Sequence record: NC_093711.1
Direction: 5' to 3' (one strand)
DNA length: 41,519 nt
Source of the DNA: a phage
Position numbers and translations under genes: made by a program. The notes under the pieces are model-generated. The model was not told where the DNA came from, did no database searches, and worked only from the letters and a program-made list of their open reading frames with translations. Positions 20,858-28,345 of the stretch are shown one piece after another (within the stretch, counting starts at the first letter, position 1; each line of letters starts with the position of its first letter).

Positions 20858-22108
20858 TTAAAGTGCGAAAGTCACCGGGATGTTGATTACTGGTTTAACC
20901 ACCGGCATCTCGTAAACTACAGGATAGCCGAGAGCATCCGCCATATGGTCAATGATGCCGTCTTTAGCTGGCTCTCCGTTATCATCGTATGCCTGCTGCT
21001 CCAGCGTCTTCGCTATCTCGGGGCATAAGTGGTCGTTAACCCACAGCTTACCTTTTTCCAGTGCGGTATTCACGGCTAAAACACGGTCTTTAACCGGAGG
21101 GTTGGCGGATTTAGCGCGAACATCTAAACCTGCCTGCTGGAGTAACGCAATATCTGAGATTGACGCCGAGTTGGTCTTGCGGTTCTTGCCGCTGGCGTCC
21201 GGGTAAACGACTATGCGGTGGCCCTGCGACTTCCACTTCTCAGTAATTACGCGCACGGTATCCGGTGTATCGAACAGGCCTTTCAGTTCTGCTACCGCGT
21301 GCCAGCCGTCTTTACGTTGCACATACACGGCGCTTGCGTTCTTCGTAACGTTGAAGTCCTGCCCGATGTACAACGTGTCACCCGGTTGAATTACCTCTTT
21401 GCTGCGGTGCTTACGGCGGTCATATGCGTAATACACGCTGCCGGAGGTAAGGTTGACGAACTCACCATTCAGATACGCGTTAATCAACTGCGCCGGATAA
21501 GTCTCGGTCAGCGAACTAATGTAGTCAGGTGGCAGGAATCGCGCGTTCTCGTGTGTAGAAGCCTGCACCATCGAGTAACTCGGCGTCGGGTTCTCTTTGA
21601 ACTTGGCGTAGACGAACTTGAACCCTTCCGGTGTCGTGGTGACAGAGATGTGGTTAGTTACGCCGGGGATAACCAGACGCATACGGGCGACTATTTTGTT
21701 CCACGCCAGCTCAGCTTTCTCACGGCTCAATACATCAAGCTCATCCACGACCGCAGCAGCGATTTTGAAGCCGACTATCGAGCCTGGGTTATCCATAGAA
21801 CGGCAGATAACTGTACCGAGCACCGTCTTACCGCGAGTAACCACGACTTCTTTGTCGCCAGATTTAACCAGCACATCGAGGCCGAGCAGGTTAGCGGCTT
21901 CCTCAAATGTCGGGTAGAAGATGTCACGGATAGCCGGGTATGTCGGGCCGAAGTAACCCAGGCGCGTACCTGGATGCTTGAGCATAAACGTAAGCAGGTC
22001 AAGGCAGCCAACAAATGTCTTTCCGCTGCCGAAGCCGCCGACATATGCCTTATATTTGTTATCACAATTCAGGAACAGCGCCTGCGGTGCGGATAGCTGA
22101 ATACTCAT
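20858..22108 (-). CDS. terL: terminase large subunit
   Basis: 416-aa ORF with Walker A-like GGFGSGKT near the N-terminus and an acidic C-terminal nuclease-like region. Start overlaps the upstream stop (ATGA). Confidence 0.85.
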   Translation of the reverse strand: MSIQLSAPQALFLNCDNKYKAYVGGFGSGKTFVGCLDLLTFMLKHPGTRLGYFGPTYPAIRDIFYPTFEEAANLLGLDVLVKSGDKEVVVTRGKTVLGTVICRSMDNPGSIVGFKIAAAVVDELDVLSREKAELAWNKIVARMRLVIPGVTNHISVTTTPEGFKFVYAKFKENPTPSYSMVQASTHENARFLPPDYISSLTETYPAQLINAYLNGEFVNLTSGSVYYAYDRRKHRSKEVIQPGDTLYIGQDFNVTKNASAVYVQRKDGWHAVAELKGLFDTPDTVRVITEKWKSQGHRIVVYPDASGKNRKTNSASISDIALLQQAGLDVRAKSANPPVKDRVLAVNTALEKGKLWVNDHLCPEIAKTLEQQAYDDNGEPAKDGIIDHMADALGYPVVYEMPVVKPVINIPVTFAL

Positions 22109-22650
22109 TCCTCTACCTCACCCATATTCGTTGTTACAATTTTACCTACAGGCTCTGCAACACTAAAAATAATCTCGGTCGGTGCCGTTTCTTCGGTGGA
22201 TTCAACTGGTTTCTCTTTGCCGAGGCCCAGCTTAGCGGCAGCAAATGTAGCCGAGATGCCCGCGGCCCCCGTCTCAGTGAAGTATGCCTCTTCCAGTGCC
22301 TGTGCGGTCTCCCAGGCTTCTGCGAATGCTGGAATCTCACGCAGCCATAGCTTAATAATAGGGATAGTGGCGCCGATGTGTAAGGCAAAGCGGGCCAGTG
22401 ACGGAGGTTTATCCTGAATCAGCGGGCGTTCGTCACCCTTAGACGTAGGCACGAGTTCCCACGACGTGCGGTCGAAGAACTCGATTAGCGCGTCGCAATA
22501 ATCCGGGTCCCACAGCGCGGCGGAATTACGGGATGATTGATAAAGGCTCTGTTTACCGCGCGGTCGTTTACGTCGGCGGTTTGCGCTAACAGCTTCTTCA
22601 TGTGCAGCTTGCACCACCTCTGGCGATGGCTGCTTGAGTTTCAGCTTCAT
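22105..22650 (-). CDS. terS: terminase small subunit
   Basis: Immediately upstream of and coupled to terL. Likely start MKLKLKQ with an AAGGGGA Shine-Dalgarno; the track ORF extends to 22689. Confidence 0.55.
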   Translation of the reverse strand: MKLKLKQPSPEVVQAAHEEAVSANRRRKRPRGKQSLYQSSRNSAALWDPDYCDALIEFFDRTSWELVPTSKGDERPLIQDKPPSLARFALHIGATIPIIKLWLREIPAFAEAWETAQALEEAYFTETGAAGISATFAAAKLGLGKEKPVESTEETAPTEIIFSVAEPVGKIVTTNMGEVEE

Positions 22651-22746
22651 ATAATCCCCTTGCATATGCGTCTGACCATCAGAGCGCACCAGACGCGCCC
22701 TACGCGTCTAAAGGGATTATATAAGGTGATTGGGCAGGATGTACAG

Positions 22747-22869: not shown

Positions 22870-23028
22870 TCATTTGAAGAAACCATCCTTGACAAGCTGA
22901 CGGTATAGTTTAGCTGCGTAACGCTCTGCCTGGCCTTTGCGCCGAAATATTTTCCCATTAACTGAATACTTATTTAACTCTGGCTCGTACCAAACTTGGT
23001 TGTCGATGAACTCCAGAATACTAATCAT
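22870..23028 (-). CDS. small hypothetical protein (~52 aa), not in the ORF track
   Basis: Start overlaps the stop of the upstream gene (ATGA). MISILEFIDNQVWYEPE... Confidence 0.3.
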   Translation of the reverse strand: MISILEFIDNQVWYEPELNKYSVNGKIFRRKGQAERYAAKLYRQLVKDGFFK

Positions 23029-23261
23029 TCCCCACTCCCCTCTTTAGCAATACGTTGCTCTGTTTTAGTGATACCCCGGCGTGTGAATAACACCGGGCTT
23101 GTCTTAACGTGCGTCATCAGACGGTTGTTATAAATTACATGGCGCTCGCAGTTAACGTCTTTGCTGTACTTGGCAATCGTCATTTCGTTGATGCCGGTTT
23201 GTCGGCATGTCTCAGCCATCGTGCCAAATTCTTTAATCAGGTTTGGAATGCTGGTAATCAT
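23025..23261 (-). CDS. small HTH DNA-binding protein
   Basis: HTH-like segment ETCRQTGINEMTIAKYS. Probable start at the internal Met (MITSIPN); the track ORF extends to 23285. Confidence 0.45.
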   Translation of the reverse strand: MITSIPNLIKEFGTMAETCRQTGINEMTIAKYSKDVNCERHVIYNNRLMTHVKTSPVLFTRRGITKTEQRIAKEGSGE

Positions 23262-23430
23262 CCTAAGAAATTCCTCGTTGTCCACATCGCATTCGGATAT
23301 TTGTTATCGCGGTCCTGCACTACGGCAACCATGTTACCGCGTTGCACCAGGCAAAAGTGCCGTTGTTGCTCGCCGTTGTAACGACGCCAGATTGCCTCTT
23401 CGATTGCTGCGTTGATGTCACTGAACATAT

Positions 23431-23613
23431 TCATCCCACTATCTCATCACCGAGCCACGCCGTTTCTCGTATATCGTCGACCACACAAGCGGCGTGCTCA
23501 CGGCTAATTGCAAAAATGTAGAAGCTGAACTTCTTCCCGTCGGCGTCGATGTGGTTAACCGAGTATGGTTTCCACAGGACGCCATCGATAACTACGGGTT
23601 CAGGCGCTTTCAT
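23431..23613 (-). CDS. hypothetical protein
   Basis: 60-aa ORF within the chain of coupled early ORFs. Confidence 0.4.
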   Translation of the reverse strand: MKAPEPVVIDGVLWKPYSVNHIDADGKKFSFYIFAISREHAACVVDDIRETAWLGDEIVG

Positions 23614-23848
23614 ACGCTTTACCGCATTTTAAGCATGTGACTCGATGCTCCCCATCAACTAAATGCAGGCGGTAATCATGCTCGCAGGCGTTCATCTTTT
23701 CCTCTTCTCCTCTCAACAACATGAGAAGAACCTTAAATGCGGCTAACTGGTACTCACCGTTAATCGACAGTTGCCCGCCTAACGTCTGTTTCTCCGACTC
23801 AAGCACCAGAATACGGCGCTCGAGCGATGCGATTGTGATTTTAGGCAT
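23600..23848 (-). CDS. small zinc-ribbon protein (CEH...CxKCG family)
   Basis: C-terminal motif CEHDY-x10-CLKCG. Probable start MPKITIASLE; the track ORF extends to 23911. Confidence 0.45.
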   Translation of the reverse strand: MPKITIASLERRILVLESEKQTLGGQLSINGEYQLAAFKVLLMLLRGEEEKMNACEHDYRLHLVDGEHRVTCLKCGKAYESA

Positions 23849-24086
23849 GACGCTGTACCCCGCATTTAATACACTGCCCATACATATCCTTCGGATTGTA
23901 GTCGAACTCATGTTCGCACTTGTTCAGGTTGAAGCGGTTAATCAGTTCACGGCGCGTCTCATAAAGCGACTCAACCATTTGCTCAGCTACCGCGATTTTA
24001 GTATTCAGGACGTGCATCACGTGTCCGATGTCTACGCCGCCGTTAACAGCCTCTACCATCATCTTTTCGTATTCGCGGTCAGTCAT
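23841..24086 (-). CDS. small zinc-ribbon protein (CEH...CxKCG family)
   Basis: 81-aa ORF with C-terminal CEHEF-x10-CIKCG, paralogous to the downstream gene. Confidence 0.5.
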   Translation of the reverse strand: MTDREYEKMMVEAVNGGVDIGHVMHVLNTKIAVAEQMVESLYETRRELINRFNLNKCEHEFDYNPKDMYGQCIKCGVQRHA

Positions 24087-24241
24087 TCTTTACGCTCTCC
24101 CCACATGCGATTAAGATACTTGTTCTTGTCCGGCCCAGGGAAACTGTTACGTTTCATCAGTTCCTCTCGTGTCGGGAACGGGGTGCGGTTGACTTTCTTC
24201 CCGGCGGATGGTGTCGTGATATTTCCTTCTGACTCGCTCAT
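24083..24241 (-). CDS. small hypothetical protein (~52 aa), not in the ORF track
   Basis: AGGAG Shine-Dalgarno; stop overlaps the next start (ATGA). Confidence 0.3.
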   Translation of the reverse strand: MSESEGNITTPSAGKKVNRTPFPTREELMKRNSFPGPDKNKYLNRMWGERKE

Positions 24242-24387
24242 TTCTTCTCTCCTGCGTAAGCTGCTTTAAGTGTCTGCATCGCAGCGAACCAGAACGCGTC
24301 CGCTGGAATGCTGTTGCTCAGGTTACTAACGGCGATGCGTGCCATCAGTTGTGCGTCTTTGAATGCTTCGATGTCTGTGATTTTCAT
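24238..24387 (-). CDS. small hypothetical protein (~49 aa), not in the ORF track
   Basis: AAGGGG Shine-Dalgarno; coupled to the downstream ORF. Confidence 0.3.
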
Positions 24388-24544
24388 TTTCCAAACACCC
24401 CTTTAGCTTTCAGATTATTGCGGTAGAACTGCATCACATGCTCATTATGAAAGTTACTCATCTTCTCTACTCCGTTCTCGTTGTCGATGGAGTAAATATA
24501 ATAGGGTCTAAGGTAATAGTCAACTAGTCATTACAGAAAACAGA

Positions 24545-24576
24545 TAAAAAAAATCCCGGCTGGGTCAGGGCCGGGA
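24545..24576 (-). terminator. strong rho-independent terminator downstream of the lysis cassette
   Basis: Minus-strand hairpin ATCCCGGCCCTGACCCAGCCGGGAT followed by T8. Confidence 0.7.
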
Positions 24577-24808
24577 TAAAACTGGAGAGCAGAGGGATGG
24601 AACAGGAGGTGATTTAAGTATCGGCGGATTAGTCTCAGGTGTCAATTGGTAAAATAAAACCCGGATTCGCGGTCCAGGTTTCGGTCATAAGCCCCTGAAC
24701 CCTACGCAGTCTCCACCGCTTGGGCTGCTGCTTCGGGTTTACCGGGGCTTAGTATGCAAGCACAAGCAGCGTAGGGATAAGTTTACTAAACGCCTTCGTA
24801 TTCGTCCA

Positions 24809-25294
24809 TCATTTAACAGCCCTCCCAATAGCCTCAGCCTCTTGCCACGGTTTACCGTCGAACAGCGCCAGACGCCCGGCTGTACGGCGACGCAGGCCAA
24901 GTAGTGGTTTGCCGTTCTGGTTGATGAACAGCGCCAGCTTAGCCCGCAGTGTTGCAGTATCACCAGAACGCAGTGCCTTGCCTGTGCCCGTAGTAGACGC
25001 AATCACGCCAGCACCTGCGTTATACACCAGGTCACACACCGCATCGAACTGTGCCTGTGTAAGCGAATGGTGCGCCGCGGCATCAACCGCAGCTACGGCT
25101 TTAGACATATCGCGATTCAGTAACAGGAGGCCTTGCCCCGGGGTGATGGTCTTACCCGGGGTTACGTCCGGTCCGTAGTGCCCGTAGCCAATAGTCAGGT
25201 ACTTCTCGTTCGACGTAGCACGATACGCAGTTCCACGGAACCCCTCGAACGCGGCGGTAAAATGCAATCCATTATCTGAAATGTTTCGAGACAT
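24809..25294 (-). CDS. endolysin, phage lysozyme family (T4/P22 gp19-like muramidase)
   Basis: Catalytic-region pattern FEGFRGTAYR...YLTIGYGHYG and downstream helical domain. Probable start MSRNISDNG with a GGAGGG Shine-Dalgarno; the track ORF extends to 25345. Confidence 0.75.
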   Translation of the reverse strand: MSRNISDNGLHFTAAFEGFRGTAYRATSNEKYLTIGYGHYGPDVTPGKTITPGQGLLLLNRDMSKAVAAVDAAAHHSLTQAQFDAVCDLVYNAGAGVIASTTGTGKALRSGDTATLRAKLALFINQNGKPLLGLRRRTAGRLALFDGKPWQEAEAIGRAVK

Positions 25295-25544
25295 GCTTAT
25301 GCCCTCCGTATGACAGCCACGCCTGGCGAATCTGGCGCAGCGCAACTAATGTGATTAACGTCTCAGGCAGCGTCGGCGACATGCCGCCTTGTAACAGGTG
25401 GATACATCCGGCGGCGCAGACGATAGCAGTCAGGATATAGAGCACCCGACCGAACAGCCCGTCGTCCACGCTGGGGTGATATACATTAAACAGCGATGTG
25501 CCCCCGATTGCCAGCATACCGCCGAACCAGAATAACTCATTCAT
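25272..25544 (-). CDS. small membrane protein (holin/antiholin-like, 2 TM)
   Basis: From the internal Met MNELFWFGG: two hydrophobic helices and a charged C-terminus. Lies between the holin and endolysin genes. Confidence 0.5.
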   Translation of the reverse strand: MNELFWFGGMLAIGGTSLFNVYHPSVDDGLFGRVLYILTAIVCAAGCIHLLQGGMSPTLPETLITLVALRQIRQAWLSYGGHKHVSKHFR

Positions 25545-25845
25545 CCGGGCCTCCTCGACGTGCGATGTATTCTCCGGCGACGATACCAGAGAGGCGGGAA
25601 TAGATAGGCATCCAGAGAATAGCGATGATGAATCCGAGGCCAGCGATTTCACGGTCGCCCGTGATGCCAAACCATTGAGCCGCGAGAGGGGCGCCAAATA
25701 CGGCGCAGGTAAAGCCGGTTGCAATAAAGCAGAAGCCATCGATAGGGCCAGAAATAACGGACTTATGTTGTCGTAGTCCGATGACCCCTCCGGCGAGTGC
25801 GGCAGCGAGAAGCCAGCCTGTCACTGTTTCAGTAAATTTATCCAA
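25537..25845 (-). CDS. holin (3 predicted TM segments)
   Basis: 102-aa ORF with three hydrophobic segments and a charged C-terminal tail, immediately upstream of the lysis genes. Confidence 0.55.
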   Translation of the reverse strand: MDKFTETVTGWLLAAALAGGVIGLRQHKSVISGPIDGFCFIATGFTCAVFGAPLAAQWFGITGDREIAGLGFIIAILWMPIYSRLSGIVAGEYIARRGGPDE

Positions 25846-25904
25846 GATGAATCCTCCAGGTGCGTATTAAGTATGCAGTAACTGGAGGATACCACGGGTA
25901 GGAA

Positions 25905-26345
25905 TTATCCTAATAGTTGTTTGGTAATAATCTTGCCGCCGGTGTTAGTGTCAAACTTCGATGCGACGGCTACACCACCATGTGCCGAATACCCGCATTC
26001 CATAGCTGCTAATGCATAAGGAGAACCGGAGCCAACGGCGGCAAAGCCGTCTGCAATTGGAATAACCGAACTAAGTGCACAATCCCAAGATTTGTAGAAC
26101 GCGACTTTATACACCTTTTCTGTGTCTTTCACGAACACCAGGGCTTCGAAATCGAAGTCGTAGTGCCGTGCCTGAAGAATACCCTGACAATCGATAAGCA
26201 TAGTGCCTACCCCCGCATCGCCAGCTACCCCGATAACAGCAAAATCATTCTCATATATCTTTGTGTCTGTGTTGTAACAGTTACTCCCACACACAACACG
26301 CGTATCACAGGCCATTGTCTTTCCGTCAAACGCGATAGTAGTCAT
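25905..26345 (-). CDS. HslV / proteasome beta-subunit-like Ntn-hydrolase
   Basis: 146-aa ORF starting MTTIAFDG (Thr right after Met), with internal GD and a GSGSPYA motif resembling the HslV GSGGPYA motif. Shorter than HslV (~175 aa). Confidence 0.55.
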   Translation of the reverse strand: MTTIAFDGKTMACDTRVVCGSNCYNTDTKIYENDFAVIGVAGDAGVGTMLIDCQGILQARHYDFDFEALVFVKDTEKVYKVAFYKSWDCALSSVIPIADGFAAVGSGSPYALAAMECGYSAHGGVAVASKFDTNTGGKIITKQLLG

Positions 26346-26635
26346 TTATGTCTCCAGATGTATTGCCGTCTCTGCGGTTTCGTCGGAATATCATCGTATC
26401 CGAGCGATTTCCAGTAATTAAATAGCCGATTAGCGATTGCGGCGCGTTCCTGTGTTTTAAACTCACCAAGATTCACGGCCTTCCCGTTCTGGAATCCACA
26501 GGCTCGGATAGCTTTACGTCGGGCCTGAATCTCAGGGTACAGAGCGTTACGGCGGCGCTTGTATACCCGTGTTTTAGCTCTCGGCGCCAGCGGCGCAAGG
26601 CCGCTTCGTTTCAGGATGTCAGTTGCGAGGCTCAT
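26342..26635 (-). CDS. hypothetical basic protein
   Basis: 97-aa Arg/Lys-rich ORF; its stop overlaps the start of the HslV-like gene. Confidence 0.4.
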   Translation of the reverse strand: MSLATDILKRSGLAPLAPRAKTRVYKRRRNALYPEIQARRKAIRACGFQNGKAVNLGEFKTQERAAIANRLFNYWKSLGYDDIPTKPQRRQYIWRHK

Positions 26636-26697
26636 TCACATACACGCCATAAGAAACATACATACGCCAAGTATGGATAGCACAACTATAAGCCCCA

Positions 26698-26886
26698 TCA
26701 CTCCACCCCTTCCACATGTGTAACTGACCCACAGTTCGCGCACTCGACGTAATCCGGGAACTGGTCTTTGTATTTCTGTAACTCAGCTTCGAGTTTCGCG
26801 TAATCTTCGTAAAGCACTAACACGCCCTCAACATCAGGAGTAAACCCGAATATCTGGTCGTAGGTATATCTCTGTACCATAATCAC
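26698..26886 (-). CDS. hypothetical protein
   Basis: 62-aa ORF with an AGGAG Shine-Dalgarno and a C-terminal CANCG. Confidence 0.4.
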   Translation of the reverse strand: MIMVQRYTYDQIFGFTPDVEGVLVLYEDYAKLEAELQKYKDQFPDYVECANCGSVTHVEGVE

Positions 26887-27082
26887 TTCTCCTGATTGCC
26901 AAGTCGCTTAGGTGAGCAGATAGCGCGTACCTCTGAATCGTTGGGCTTGTCGCCCTGAAACAGGAAGTGTGCGTTCTCTGCGGCGCGTGCCGCTGACTGG
27001 CACGCCTCCATCGAATAAAACGTTTATGATGCCGCTAGTTGCATCTGGCCAGCAGTTAGCACCCAGATAAATAAGATGCTGG

Positions 27083-27631
27083 TCATGTCGTCTCTCCACA
27101 TCTGCGGCACACAAAATAATCCTCGTCGGCATCAAGAACCCAATCATGATCACATTCCTGAGTATCGTTTTTCGGTTTATATTCCTTGTCGTCCCACTCA
27201 CGTTTACCACATTTAGAGCAAAGCTCGCTACCAGGAACGTTGTTCGGATTGCCTTCGCTGAGAAACAACCCAGGCATAATAATCCAAGAGTGCTCGCATT
27301 CCTGGGTATCTTCTTTACGGCAACCAGATTGCTCCGGCGGTACAGGCGTCTGGGTGCACCGACAATTTACCGTTGGCCCGGGCGCATGTTCGCCAACCAC
27401 GTAGCTCTGGCCCCTAGAAATGTACCCACCCTTACGCACAAGTTTGTAAGCCTCTACATCCCCGGTGGCGGTAGCCAGCGCCATATGTAACCCCTTAATC
27501 TGCACCGAAGCATCACGTAACTGATTCTTAAGTGACTGCACCTCATGAGCCAGGTCTTCGCTCCGGCTGTTATTTACCTGCTGCCGTAGCTGGTCGATCA
27601 GGTACTCGAATATTTCGTTTTTGTTACTCAT
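27083..27631 (-). CDS. Cys-rich protein with two CEH/CDH...CxxCG zinc-ribbon repeats
   Basis: N-terminal coiled-coil-like region, then QECEHSW...CSKCG and QECDHDW...CRRCG. Probable start MSNKNEIF, coupled to a 45-aa upstream ORF. Confidence 0.5.
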   Translation of the reverse strand: MSNKNEIFEYLIDQLRQQVNNSRSEDLAHEVQSLKNQLRDASVQIKGLHMALATATGDVEAYKLVRKGGYISRGQSYVVGEHAPGPTVNCRCTQTPVPPEQSGCRKEDTQECEHSWIIMPGLFLSEGNPNNVPGSELCSKCGKREWDDKEYKPKNDTQECDHDWVLDADEDYFVCRRCGETT

Positions 27632-27827: not shown

Positions 27828-28001
27828 TTATTGGTGTGTTATGGAGTCGATGAATGCCAGTAACTCCCTTTCCGCTTCTGCCTCTCTTTCTTCAAGCGAC
27901 CAGGTAGCGGATTCCTCTGTCGCCGTTGCTAAATCGGTTTTCGCATCAACCATCGTGTCGATTAACGTGATTAGTCGTTCAGCCTGTTCTTTAGTAATCA
28001 T
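27828..28001 (-). CDS. small acidic helical protein (~57 aa), not in the ORF track
   Basis: AGGAG Shine-Dalgarno 8 nt upstream of ATG; MITKEQAERLITLIDTMVDAK... Preferred over the antisense Ser/Ala-rich plus-strand ORF 27841-28071. Confidence 0.35.
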   Translation of the reverse strand: MITKEQAERLITLIDTMVDAKTDLATATEESATWSLEEREAEAERELLAFIDSITHQ

Positions 28002-28144: not shown

Positions 28145-28345
28145 TCACACTTCTGGCGGCTCGGGTAACGGCATCCAGTGCGTCACGTACTTATCGTAGT
28201 GATTCCAGAAAGGCTTTCTCCCGTCATCAGGAACTATGTAATAATCGTGCTGAACTGCGTTATTTAACGTTTCATACACCAGGAACTCTTTATCCGTATA
28301 CCCATTACCCGGCAGCATCTCACTACACTTAATCCACTCACCCAT
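28145..28345 (-). CDS. DUF551-like phage protein
   Basis: 66-aa ORF with MGEWIKCSEMLP... and C-terminal THWMPLPEPP, a pattern recalled from DUF551-type phage proteins. Confidence 0.45.
   Translation of the reverse strand: MGEWIKCSEMLPGNGYTDKEFLVYETLNNAVQHDYYIVPDDGRKPFWNHYDKYVTHWMPLPEPPEV

Follow-up and report, generated by a model that had tools for sequence, protein, structure and literature searches.

Introduction

Zinc ribbons and rubredoxin-like knuckles (e.g., A2L_zn_ribbon, PF08792; Zn_Ribbon_1, PF13240; DZR, PF12773) are the described domains closest to the phage module analyzed here. Like the module, they are about 25-35 residues long, have a beta-hairpin (a predicted one in the module) between two ligand pairs, end in a classic C-x-x-C-G knuckle as the second pair, and can occur in tandem. 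The two pairs of the phage module lie 10-23 residues apart, in the two-pair ligand arrangement of the zinc ribbon class. In contrast to the ribbon families, the first pair in all modules is C-x-H with an invariant aromatic residue rather than a CPxCG-type knuckle; the CxxCG knuckle is confined to the second pair. No Pfam model reached its gathering score for the three proteins that carry the module in this phage (A, B and C). The best match was A2L_zn_ribbon, with 12.8 bits for B and 12.2 bits for C against a cut-off of 22.9.

DksA/TraR proteins (PF01258), including the TraR-like proteins of phages and plasmids, are small proteins in which a zinc site accompanies a helical or coiled-coil part. 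The phage proteins likewise have a helical hairpin or coiled coil adjoining a putative zinc site. However, DksA/TraR has a C4 motif (CxxC-x17-CxxC) where the phage module has C-x-H...CxxC, and the PF01258 HMM did not match even at E <= 10. Lar (PF14354), P2 Ogr/Delta and Mu Com are also short zinc-binding proteins from phage accessory or regulatory regions. They are single-domain proteins, not modular cassettes, and their HMMs did not match A, B or C. A neighboring gene, D, gave a sub-threshold match to Lar (E 0.09; 13.4 bits, cut-off 28.6).

The minimal zinc ribbons of eukaryotic RanBP2-type/NZF arrays have a conserved Trp and act as independent protein- or RNA-binding heads, in tandem and in variable copy number. 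Their likeness to the phage module is one of functional analogy only. The ligand pattern is different (W-x-C-x2-C...C-x2-C), the lineages are eukaryotic and not phage, and there was no significant sequence match (Vps36-NZF-N, E 0.17).

Results

Three minus-strand genes carry a Cys-His module

We analyzed a stretch of 41,519 nucleotides (the window; NC_093711.1) that is the DNA of Escherichia phage G_AB-2017 (Guernseyvirinae, Kagunavirus-like). Genes A, B and C (Table 1) are present where an earlier note on this DNA had placed them, all on the minus strand, and the starts given there agree with how homologues begin (MPKITIA.., MTDREYEK.. and MSNKNE.., respectively). The product of gene B matches 'hypothetical protein G_32, Escherichia phage G_AB-2017' at 100% identity. 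Genes B and A share 8 nt at the start of A. The pair sits between the genes for endolysin and terminase and is preceded by a terminator-like hairpin and a sigma-70-like promoter; gene C lies upstream of the lysis cassette. The promoter- and terminator-like sites (whole context 24495..24575) are consensus matches only, and sites of this kind were no more numerous in the region than in shuffled sequences. A search of the literature and databases found no expression data for the three genes and nothing bearing on their function.

Table 1. Positions of genes, modules and other sequence features in the window.
Feature	Position	Strand	Description
Gene A	23600..23848	-	82 aa; phrog_9023; N-terminal helical hairpin, then one C-terminal CHCC module
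Module of A	23621..23686	-	CEHDY-x12-CLKCG; six-frame motif scan
Gene B	23841..24086	-	81 aa; phrog_1402; helical N-terminus, then one C-terminal CHCC module
Module of B	23859..23918	-	CEHEF-x10-CIKCG; motif scan; inside a discrete 70-nt segment missing from close relatives
Sigma-70-like promoter	24523 to 24495	-	TTGACT-17-TATATT; consensus match; after the hairpin, upstream of the B/A block
Terminator-like hairpin	about 24546-24575	-	with T8 run; consensus match; upstream of the block with B and A
Gene D	26698..26886	-	62 aa; phrog_29624; CxxCG half-site only, without full module in the window
Gene C	27083..27631	-	182 aa; phrog_6094; helical N-terminus, variable middle, conserved linker, two CHCC modules
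Module 2 of C	27095..27154	-	CDHDW-x10-CRRCG; motif scan and alignment; other module types here in relatives
Direct repeat, copy 1	27134..27172	-	intragenic; linker and first knuckle of module 2
Module 1 of C	27206..27298	-	CEHSW-x21-CSKCG (long-loop type); motif scan and alignment
Direct repeat, copy 2	27278..27316	-	intragenic; linker and first knuckle of module 1
Linker of C	27299..27334	-	EQSGCRKEDTQE; conserved; directly before module 1
Carrier region of C	27431..27625	-	residues 3-67; helical, coiled-coil-like (AlphaFold2)
Gene E	27828..28001	-	57 aa; phrog_653; without module in the window

We found that the pattern C[ED]H..CxxCG occurs exactly four times in a six-frame scan of the 41.5 kb, each time inside A, B or C. 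In 300 dinucleotide-preserving shuffles, the loose form of the pattern occurred 0.047 times on average (maximum, 2). A strict form, with an aromatic residue after the His and K/R in the knuckle, was absent from all 300. The spacer between the two halves of the motif is 10 residues in B, as previously noted; that in A is 12 residues and not the 10 claimed.

The module has the signature (Q)-E-C-x-H-x-[WYF]...C-x-K-C-G (also C-x-[K/R]-C-G), with a loop of 8-21 residues. Our alignments covered 24 sequences of the A family, 32 of the C family and a pool of 35 modules, each picked for carrying the motif; in these, C, H, C, C and G were invariant together with the aromatic residue after the His, and the loops varied. 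C55, H57, C72, C75 and G76 of A were invariant in the 24 module-bearing orthologues selected for alignment. In the 32 two-module orthologues of C selected in the same manner, the invariant residues were C112, H114, W116, C138 and C141 in module 1, and C160, H162, W164, C175, C178 and G179 in module 2, which has a hypervariable loop. The signature is a specific one that related phages conserve, so the motif is not a generic chance CxxC pair. In one common variant, EWPYRFYYVVTDG..CKTCG, the C-x-H pair is gone, and this form is nevertheless kept in many phages, indicating that a four-ligand site is not always required.

The likeness among A, B and C is confined to the module

As the earlier note had proposed, the motif aligns across the three proteins (pairwise BLAST E 0.001-0.08). 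Profile comparisons with hhalign gave a probability of 86% for A and C (E 5e-6), 82% for B and C (E 1e-5) and 31% for A and B (E 5e-4). The alignable stretch among the profiles was limited to 23-30 module columns. We detected no relationship among the N-terminal helical parts, including by profile comparison. A, B and C matched three separate PHROGs over essentially the whole profiles (phrog_9023, E 4.1e-47; phrog_1402, E 3e-35; and phrog_6094, E 1.6e-62, respectively), and their orthologues often have no module. The description of the three as a paralogous family, made in the same note, therefore does not hold at the level of whole proteins. What A, B and C have in common is a mobile mini-domain of 26-30 residues, not gene ancestry.

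The module is optional and exchangeable

We found that closely related genes differ in whether they carry the module. For each of A, B and C, the family sample was the top 120 matches of a search and not a random draw. Gene A had 280 homologues, and among the top 120 the module was intact in 69 and an acidic tail was present in 40. Only 10 of the 120 listed homologues of B had an intact module; the remainder had one of four alternative tails. In isolate-genome records, the carrier of A was found in 115 and its module in 51, the carrier of B in 362 and its module in 164, and the carrier region of C in 223 (phage records) and its module in 109. Of the 164 records with the B module, 152 were Salmonella phages, and this lineage-following presence could reflect phylogeny rather than adaptation.

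The cassette boundaries in gene B are clean. In phages K1H (L003) and L019, 10 nt encoding GDTN stand in place of the 70-nt segment, and the flanks are near-identical and rejoin at the ATG of gene A.

Gene C varies in the number and type of its modules. There were 1316 homologues, of which the best 120 span 133 to 291 aa. Among these 120, 5 had no module, 27 had one, 52 had two, 33 had three and 3 had four, in 31 spacer-defined arrangements with at least 17 sequence types. The identity profile of the gene is mosaic and drops sharply over module 2, where DNA identity to the relatives L004 and L007 is 43-56% compared with 93-100% just downstream. The linker has three residues (Q101, C104 and D108) that were invariant across 50 diverse C-family members. 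The two copies of the 39-nt direct repeat are 74% identical and are a possible substrate for unequal recombination.

The module also occurs on other carriers. Four relatives (P0400, P0438, P0452 and P0481) combine a D-type N-terminus with a C-terminal CHCC module, and P0461 combines an E-type N-terminus, the linker EQSGCRKED and the module CEHDWAFYDTSASMMCRICG. The linker of C recurs before modules in P0400 and P0461. In the 40 loci longer than 6 kb, modules were found in A, B and C genes only. Searching 1.84 billion representatives with a profile of 35 modules placed the module in about 30 unrelated small proteins, and the distant module-bearing proteins matched phrog_7696, phrog_4188, phrog_5568 and phrog_18748 through it. 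All PHROGs matched by A, B, C and the module are annotated 'unknown function'. The module itself had no family match in Pfam, NCBIfam or the PDB; profile matches to PDB entries (ribosomal-protein zinc ribbons and RPB12) covered the CxxCG half only.

Predicted structure and selection

The predicted fold of the gene A protein is a helical hairpin that leads into a small beta-ribbon. The AlphaFold2 model had a mean pLDDT of 83, with helices at 6-22 and 29-53 (pLDDT >90). Strands at 59-64 and 67-72 and a short third element were placed with moderate confidence (pLDDT 66-79). The model of C was poor overall (mean pLDDT 50.6; module 1 below 50; modules ranging from below 50 to about 70). Its helices at 3-21, 24-56 and 59-67 (pLDDT 65-79) support the helical character of the N-terminus, earlier described as coiled-coil, and sequence matches of this carrier to the PDB were weak and to coiled-coil proteins only.

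The module is translated and under purifying selection. In gene A, its dN/dS was about 0.23, compared with about 0.06 for the N-terminal helix. Being below 1, these values give no indication of positive selection through point mutation, and the diversity of modules could come from recombination and drift.

Discussion

The module has invariant ligand-like residues, is optional and swappable, and belongs to no curated family. On balance, we favor the view that this lineage-enriched, zinc-ribbon-like CHCC mini-domain is an exchangeable ligand-binding head on small helical carriers. It is a self-contained unit of 20-35 residues (Cys-x-His...Cys-x-x-Cys) that, in the Guernseyvirinae, behaves like a recombination cassette at the C-terminal end of unrelated small helical carriers. 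The present genome has three of these carriers (A, B and C), and relatives add at least two (D and E). The tandem arrays on carrier C comprise 0-4 modules, whose number and type differ between phages. Each module may bind one zinc ion via C, H, C and C, and the variable hairpin would be a binding surface. The helical carriers, probably oligomeric, would present these heads to host or phage macromolecules. Such a role would be accessory, specific to host or strain and directed at host takeover, counter-defence or competition between phages, and would not belong to core replication or assembly. The view in the earlier note of the three as early genes and candidates for host takeover or anti-defence is conjecture. 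Kagunaviruses are reported to be highly sensitive to restriction-modification systems (10.1101/2024.09.12.612763), which makes a broad anti-restriction activity unlikely and gives no sign of a strong function of that kind.

Two alternatives concern the origin of the likeness. It seems quite improbable that A, B and C arose by duplication of one ancestral zinc-ribbon gene and make up a single family that shares one function. In favor of this, A and B are neighbors of equal size (82 and 81 aa) and built alike, with a helical N-terminus and a C-terminal module, and the module can be aligned across all three proteins. However, nothing is similar beyond the module columns, even profile against profile, the proteins fall into three PHROGs (9023, 1402 and 6094), each carrier has module-less orthologues, and the module is found on two further unrelated N-termini. 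A coincidental recurrence of Cys and His in small Cys-rich ORFs is far less credible still, although small zinc ribbons are common in phage genomes and the pairwise BLAST E-values are weak. Four occurrences were observed and 0.05 expected, the strict pattern was found in 0/300 shuffles, profile-profile probabilities reached 82-86% and the signature is kept in hundreds of homologues. The shuffles, the profile-profile matches and the conservation of the pooled modules effectively refute a chance or generic motif.

Other alternatives concern what the module does. The proteins might be nucleic-acid-binding regulators with DNA- or RNA-binding zinc ribbons, i.e., small phage transcription or translation regulators like P2 Ogr, Mu Com or TFIIB/TFIIS-type ribbons, or RNA-polymerase binders like DksA/TraR. 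In favor of this, a helical region combined with a C-terminal zinc site is an arrangement like that of DksA/TraR, Pfam gave weak matches below threshold to A2L/TFIIB-like ribbons (E 0.1-0.15), the PDB profile matches extend to ribosomal-protein and RPB12 ribbons at the CxxCG knuckle only, and the genes are in operons beside consensus promoters and terminators. We regard such a function as doubtful. It is also rather unlikely that the module is a neutral or stabilizing appendage, a cheap self-folding C-terminal cap (e.g., against C-terminal proteolysis) that has no ligand of its own and spreads and decays by recombination. Consistent with a cap, the module is dispensable in many orthologues, short tails can replace it, the variant without the C-x-H pair persists, its dN/dS, still below 1, is four times more relaxed than that of the carrier, and the families containing it are all without known function. 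In contrast, at least 19 sequence types show strict conservation of the ligand residues, the aromatic residue and the KCG knuckle, and tandem arrays with as many as four different modules are difficult to account for as a cap. The tails found in place of the module are conserved acidic-aromatic peptides in their own right, suggesting that the C-terminus serves as a functional display site.

An extension of the exchangeable-head reading, which we consider unlikely but worth stating, is that the modules form a combinatorial 'plug-and-play' library kept by Guernseyvirinae phages. Each module type would recognize a host protein, defence protein or nucleic acid of its own, and recombination at the conserved linker (EQSGCRKED / KPKNDTQE) would shuffle heads among several helical carriers and into arrays of 0-4, making one small gene a multi-target, rapidly re-programmable inhibitor. 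This would be a protein-level counterpart of cassette-based host-range switching, with intracellular targets instead.

If the module were only a stabilizing cap, the finding would be an ordinary one. The link among three PHROGs corrects annotation practice: PHROGs 9023, 1402 and 6094 are kept as separate families, and neither the common mini-domain nor its copy-number variation is recorded there. Because the mini-domain that joins them is in no curated library, a dedicated domain model would reveal such cassettes in other phage groups. Should the modules be target-binding heads, the locus would supply dozens of natural minimal binders, each of ~25 residues, on one common scaffold. Hundreds of closely related phages already display the polymorphisms, with modules present, absent or swapped, so that the mapping of module to phenotype (e.g., host genus, strain defences or growth on K-12 with cryptic prophages) is directly testable. 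Suitable systems are Kagunaviruses of the BASEL collection (Bas70-76) and CM001, a model phage of synthetic biology.

The shared module and its carriers

We found that genes A, B and C, three minus-strand genes of the phage (see table), encode a common C-terminal module of about 25 residues with the pattern C-x-H...C-x-x-C-G. The three ORFs and the four motif copies (one in A, one in B and two in C) lie exactly where an earlier note on this DNA had placed them, except that the A spacer has 12 residues rather than the 10 it gave. The pattern is absent elsewhere from the six-frame translation of the window. In 300 dinucleotide-preserving shuffles, the loose pattern averaged 0.047 occurrences per shuffle and a stricter form gave 0.

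The motif aligned across A, B and C by both pairwise BLAST and profile-profile comparison. The BLAST alignments (E 0.001-0.08) extended over only ~25-35 residues surrounding the motif. Comparisons of the family alignments were each limited to 23-30 module columns: A versus C gave a probability of 86% (E 4.8e-6), B versus C 82% (E 1.1e-5), and A versus B 31% (E 5e-4). The earlier note had treated the proteins as one paralogous family. That reading did not hold: their N-terminal parts are unrelated and each falls in its own PHROG (9023, 1402 and 6094, respectively). The feature that the motif marks is instead a swappable CHCC zinc-ribbon-like mini-domain with striking cassette polymorphism.

AlphaFold2 predicted a confident helical hairpin for A (residues 6-22 and 29-53, pLDDT >90), followed by a small beta-ribbon bearing the putative ligands (pLDDT 66-79). 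For C, it predicted N-terminal helices (residues 3-67) and then poorly resolved modules (mean pLDDT 50.6). Across aligned members, all of them chosen because they contain the motif, no variation occurs at the C, H, aromatic, C, C and G positions, while the hairpin between them is freely variable.

Features of the region containing genes A, B and C
Feature	Coordinates	Strand	Remarks
TerL	20858-22108		the leftward block holding A, B and C runs towards it
TerS	22105-22689		the leftward block holding A, B and C runs towards it
NinH-like ORF	23025-23285	-	matches phrog_268 positions 38-117
Gene A	23600-23848	-	phrog_9023
Gene B	23841-24086	-	phrog_1402
Unannotated ORF	24461 to 24387	-	25 codons; overlaps start of next gene
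Intergenic region	24388-24808	-	420 nt, after endolysin gene; two hairpin plus T-run terminator-like sites, a sigma-70-like promoter after each
Sigma-70-like promoter	24523-24495	-	TTGACT-17-TATATT; in the intergenic region
Sigma-70-like promoter	24645-24617	-	TTGACA-17-GATACT; in the intergenic region
Endolysin gene	24809-25345		breaks the leftward block, as do the HslV-family peptidase gene and two holin genes
HslV-family peptidase gene	25905-26345	-	phrog_1040, E 1.7e-35; between C/D genes and holin genes
Gene D	26698-26886	-	62-aa ORF, phrog_29624; ends ..DYVECANCGSVTHVEGVE, CxxCG half-site only
Gene C	27083-27631	-	phrog_6094
Gene E	27828-28001	-	
66-aa ORF	28145-28345	-	phrog_924
Divergent control region	~29.3-29.5 kb		start of the leftward small-gene block (A, B, C and neighbors), which runs on the minus strand towards the terminase genes
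Module variant EWPYRFYYVVTDGSAPFGTKVCKTCGEYF	around 2664 of locus L001 (Bas73)	-	also in P0024, P0044, P0088 and P0109

Comparison with known families

Searching Pfam, NCBIfam and PHROG with A, B, C and the genes beside them found no curated family, only PHROGs of 'unknown function'. No Pfam or NCBIfam model reached threshold; the best Pfam match, A2L_zn_ribbon, scored 12-13 bits (cut-off 22.9). Models of DksA/TraR, Ogr and Lar did not match A, B or C. PDB searches with C-family and module profiles returned only coiled-coil noise and matches to the CxxCG knuckle (C2H2 fingers and ribosomal zinc ribbons). A putative zinc-ribbon variant is the most fitting description of the module, with C-x-H as its first ligand pair and an aromatic residue after it.

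Two known groups offer the closest functional likenesses. RanBP2/NZF fingers would resemble the module as minimal zinc-ribbon arrays with independent binding heads and variable copy number, and DksA/TraR would do so as helix-plus-zinc proteins. Membership of the module proteins in either group was ruled out by motif and HMM tests. A search of the literature on Kagunavirus and Guernseyvirinae, G_AB-2017, Jerseyvirus transcriptomes and zinc-ribbon anti-defense found nothing on the A, B and C genes.

The module behaves as a cassette

Copy number varies widely in the C family. Among the best 120 of 1316 C homologues (133-291 aa long), five have no module, 27 have one, 52 have two, 33 have three and three have four. 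The homologues listed contain 31 spacer-defined arrangements and, at the clustering threshold used, 17 module sequence types. A conserved linker, EQSGCRKEDxQE or KPKNDTQE, precedes each C-family module, and the handful of positions that never vary across the entire family include linker residues Cys104, Gln101 and Asp108. Some C orthologues (P0072, P0106, P0361 and P0415) have a ~55-aa domain (VEKSWIEHAGAACPVPDDTVVDIKFRNG..WWSWG..YEIVAYRV) between linker and modules; in style, it recalls the separate 66-aa ORF (see table).

In the A and B families, the module is often replaced by another tail. An intact module is present in 69/120 listed A homologues and an acidic tail (..QKLLLSPEFDYGVDDESA) in 40/120. 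Only 10/120 listed B homologues have the module; the others have a very short tail or end in ..DDFDGDYRNGDFYEGAE, ..GDTNAIDAGKISGVKLED or ..GDGYESA. Among deposited phage genome records, the carrier N-terminus is found in 223 for C (module in 109), 115 for A (module in 51) and 362 for B (module in 164). The B module is mostly in Salmonella phages (152/164 records). The census set came from a metagenome scan; IMG/VR searches gave 5-7 loci.

Replacement tails in A and B orthologues (e.g., P0197, P0249 and P0251) include conserved acidic-aromatic peptides (..SPEFDYGVDDESA; ..DDFDGDYRNGDFYEGAE). Their conservation at the position of the module suggests a general use of the C-terminus for displaying interaction motifs. 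Such tails may resemble the acidic, protein-recruiting C-termini of SSB and T7 gp2.5.

The boundaries of exchange are sharp in B. In K1H and one metagenomic relative, 10 nt take the place of the 70 nt that encode CEHEFDYNPKDMYGQCIKCGVQRH, with near-identical flanks that rejoin exactly at the A start codon. Compared with its close relatives, gene C is a mosaic: identity is 100% upstream and over the first 110 nt, drops to 36-56% in the middle, recovers to 80-90% across the linker and module 1, falls to 43-56% across module 2 and returns to 93-100% downstream. Its two linker/first-knuckle junctions make a 39-nt direct repeat (74% identity), a plausible substrate for unequal exchange.

Module diversity arises by whole-module replacement. 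We found no signature of positive selection by point mutation in 12 distinct A genes recovered from the loci; in these genes, whose pairs are not independent, dN/dS was ~0.06 across the N-terminal helix, compared with ~0.23 across the 25-codon module. The latter value indicates that the module is translated and constrained, under selection four times more relaxed than that on the carrier. Some C genes contain A-like (CEHDYRL..) and B-like (C.HEFDY..) modules. Recent DNA transfer between these and the modules of A and B was not evident, since nearly every codon differs synonymously.

Distribution of the module

Searching 1.84 billion representative proteins with a profile of 35 modules (E <= 0.001) matched 173 proteins. 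About half were eukaryotic C2H2 arrays, which were discounted as matching the knuckle only. Small proteins (<=300 aa) that are not C2H2 arrays made up 63 of the top 150 listed matches and include C-family members. Others join the module to an N-terminus like that of D (P0400, P0438, P0452 and P0481) or E (P0461), often through the linker EQSGCRKED, as in the C family. A further ~30 of the top 150 are unrelated small proteins, some consisting of two modules only (~73 aa), some membrane-anchored, and some with a helical N-terminus and one module; through the module they match the same PHROGs, and none matches a Pfam family. In 40 related loci >6 kb, modules are found in A, B and C genes only, and by tblastn against 50,697 phage records the array of the type in the window is confined to Guernseyvirinae.

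In relatives (P0116, and the end of the C gene in related locus L052), the C-family linker is joined to another Cys-rich unit (LPVCSCIPAHCGTYYGNTVVCDNCGSVTHVEGVE), whose second knuckle is the ending seen in D. There may thus be a second type of cassette, distinct from the first, of which D would be a remnant or half. Separately, four proteins with lipoprotein signals (P0404, P0418, P0437 and P0463) have 4-6 tandem repeats of H-x-W-x3-C-x2-P-x-T-C-x2-CG-x-T-EG. Besides the module profile, they match Pfam C1_1 weakly, and they may form an extracellular repeat family whose likeness to the module is due either to distant kinship or to convergence.

Genome setting

The region is 87-95% identical in DNA to Kagunavirus/Jerseyvirus siphophages (K1H, K1G, K1ind, Bas73 and others), and the product of B has the same sequence (100% identity) as 'hypothetical protein G_32 [Escherichia phage G_AB-2017]'. 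The window is the complete genome of that phage, a member of Guernseyvirinae. A terminator-like hairpin and the promoter-like TTGACT-17-TATATT precede A and B, which are located between the endolysin gene and the terminase genes; site counts in the promoter and terminator scan were not above those in shuffles. The phage HslV-family peptidase gene occurs without HslU. Residues 1-41 of B match phrog_268 positions 1-41. From these matches and those of the NinH-like ORF, phrog_268 seems to include proteins in which a B-type N-terminus is fused to a NinH-like domain, another sign of domain shuffling in the block around B.

Proposed role

Every module probably coordinates a single zinc ion and would offer its variable hairpin as a binding surface. 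The helical carriers would display one such head (A and B) or an array (C). A strong functional claim is weakened by a common variant, EWPYRFYYVVTDGSAPFGTKVCKTCGEYF, that lacks the C-x-H pair of its intact counterpart ECKHSFYYVITDGSAPFGTKVCKTCGEYF and keeps only the CxxCG knuckle, with a linker Cys 8 residues upstream. It is also weakened by the reported high sensitivity of Kagunaviruses to restriction-modification systems and their reported variable sensitivity to the Old defense system (10.1101/2024.09.12.612763). The observation in the earlier note is confirmed, and its interpretation is partly supported; the early expression and the host-takeover or anti-defense function that it proposed are conjectural. 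The CHCC mini-domain is described in no curated library. Its optional presence, structured by lineage, suggests that its role in these phages is accessory and specific to host or strain rather than core.
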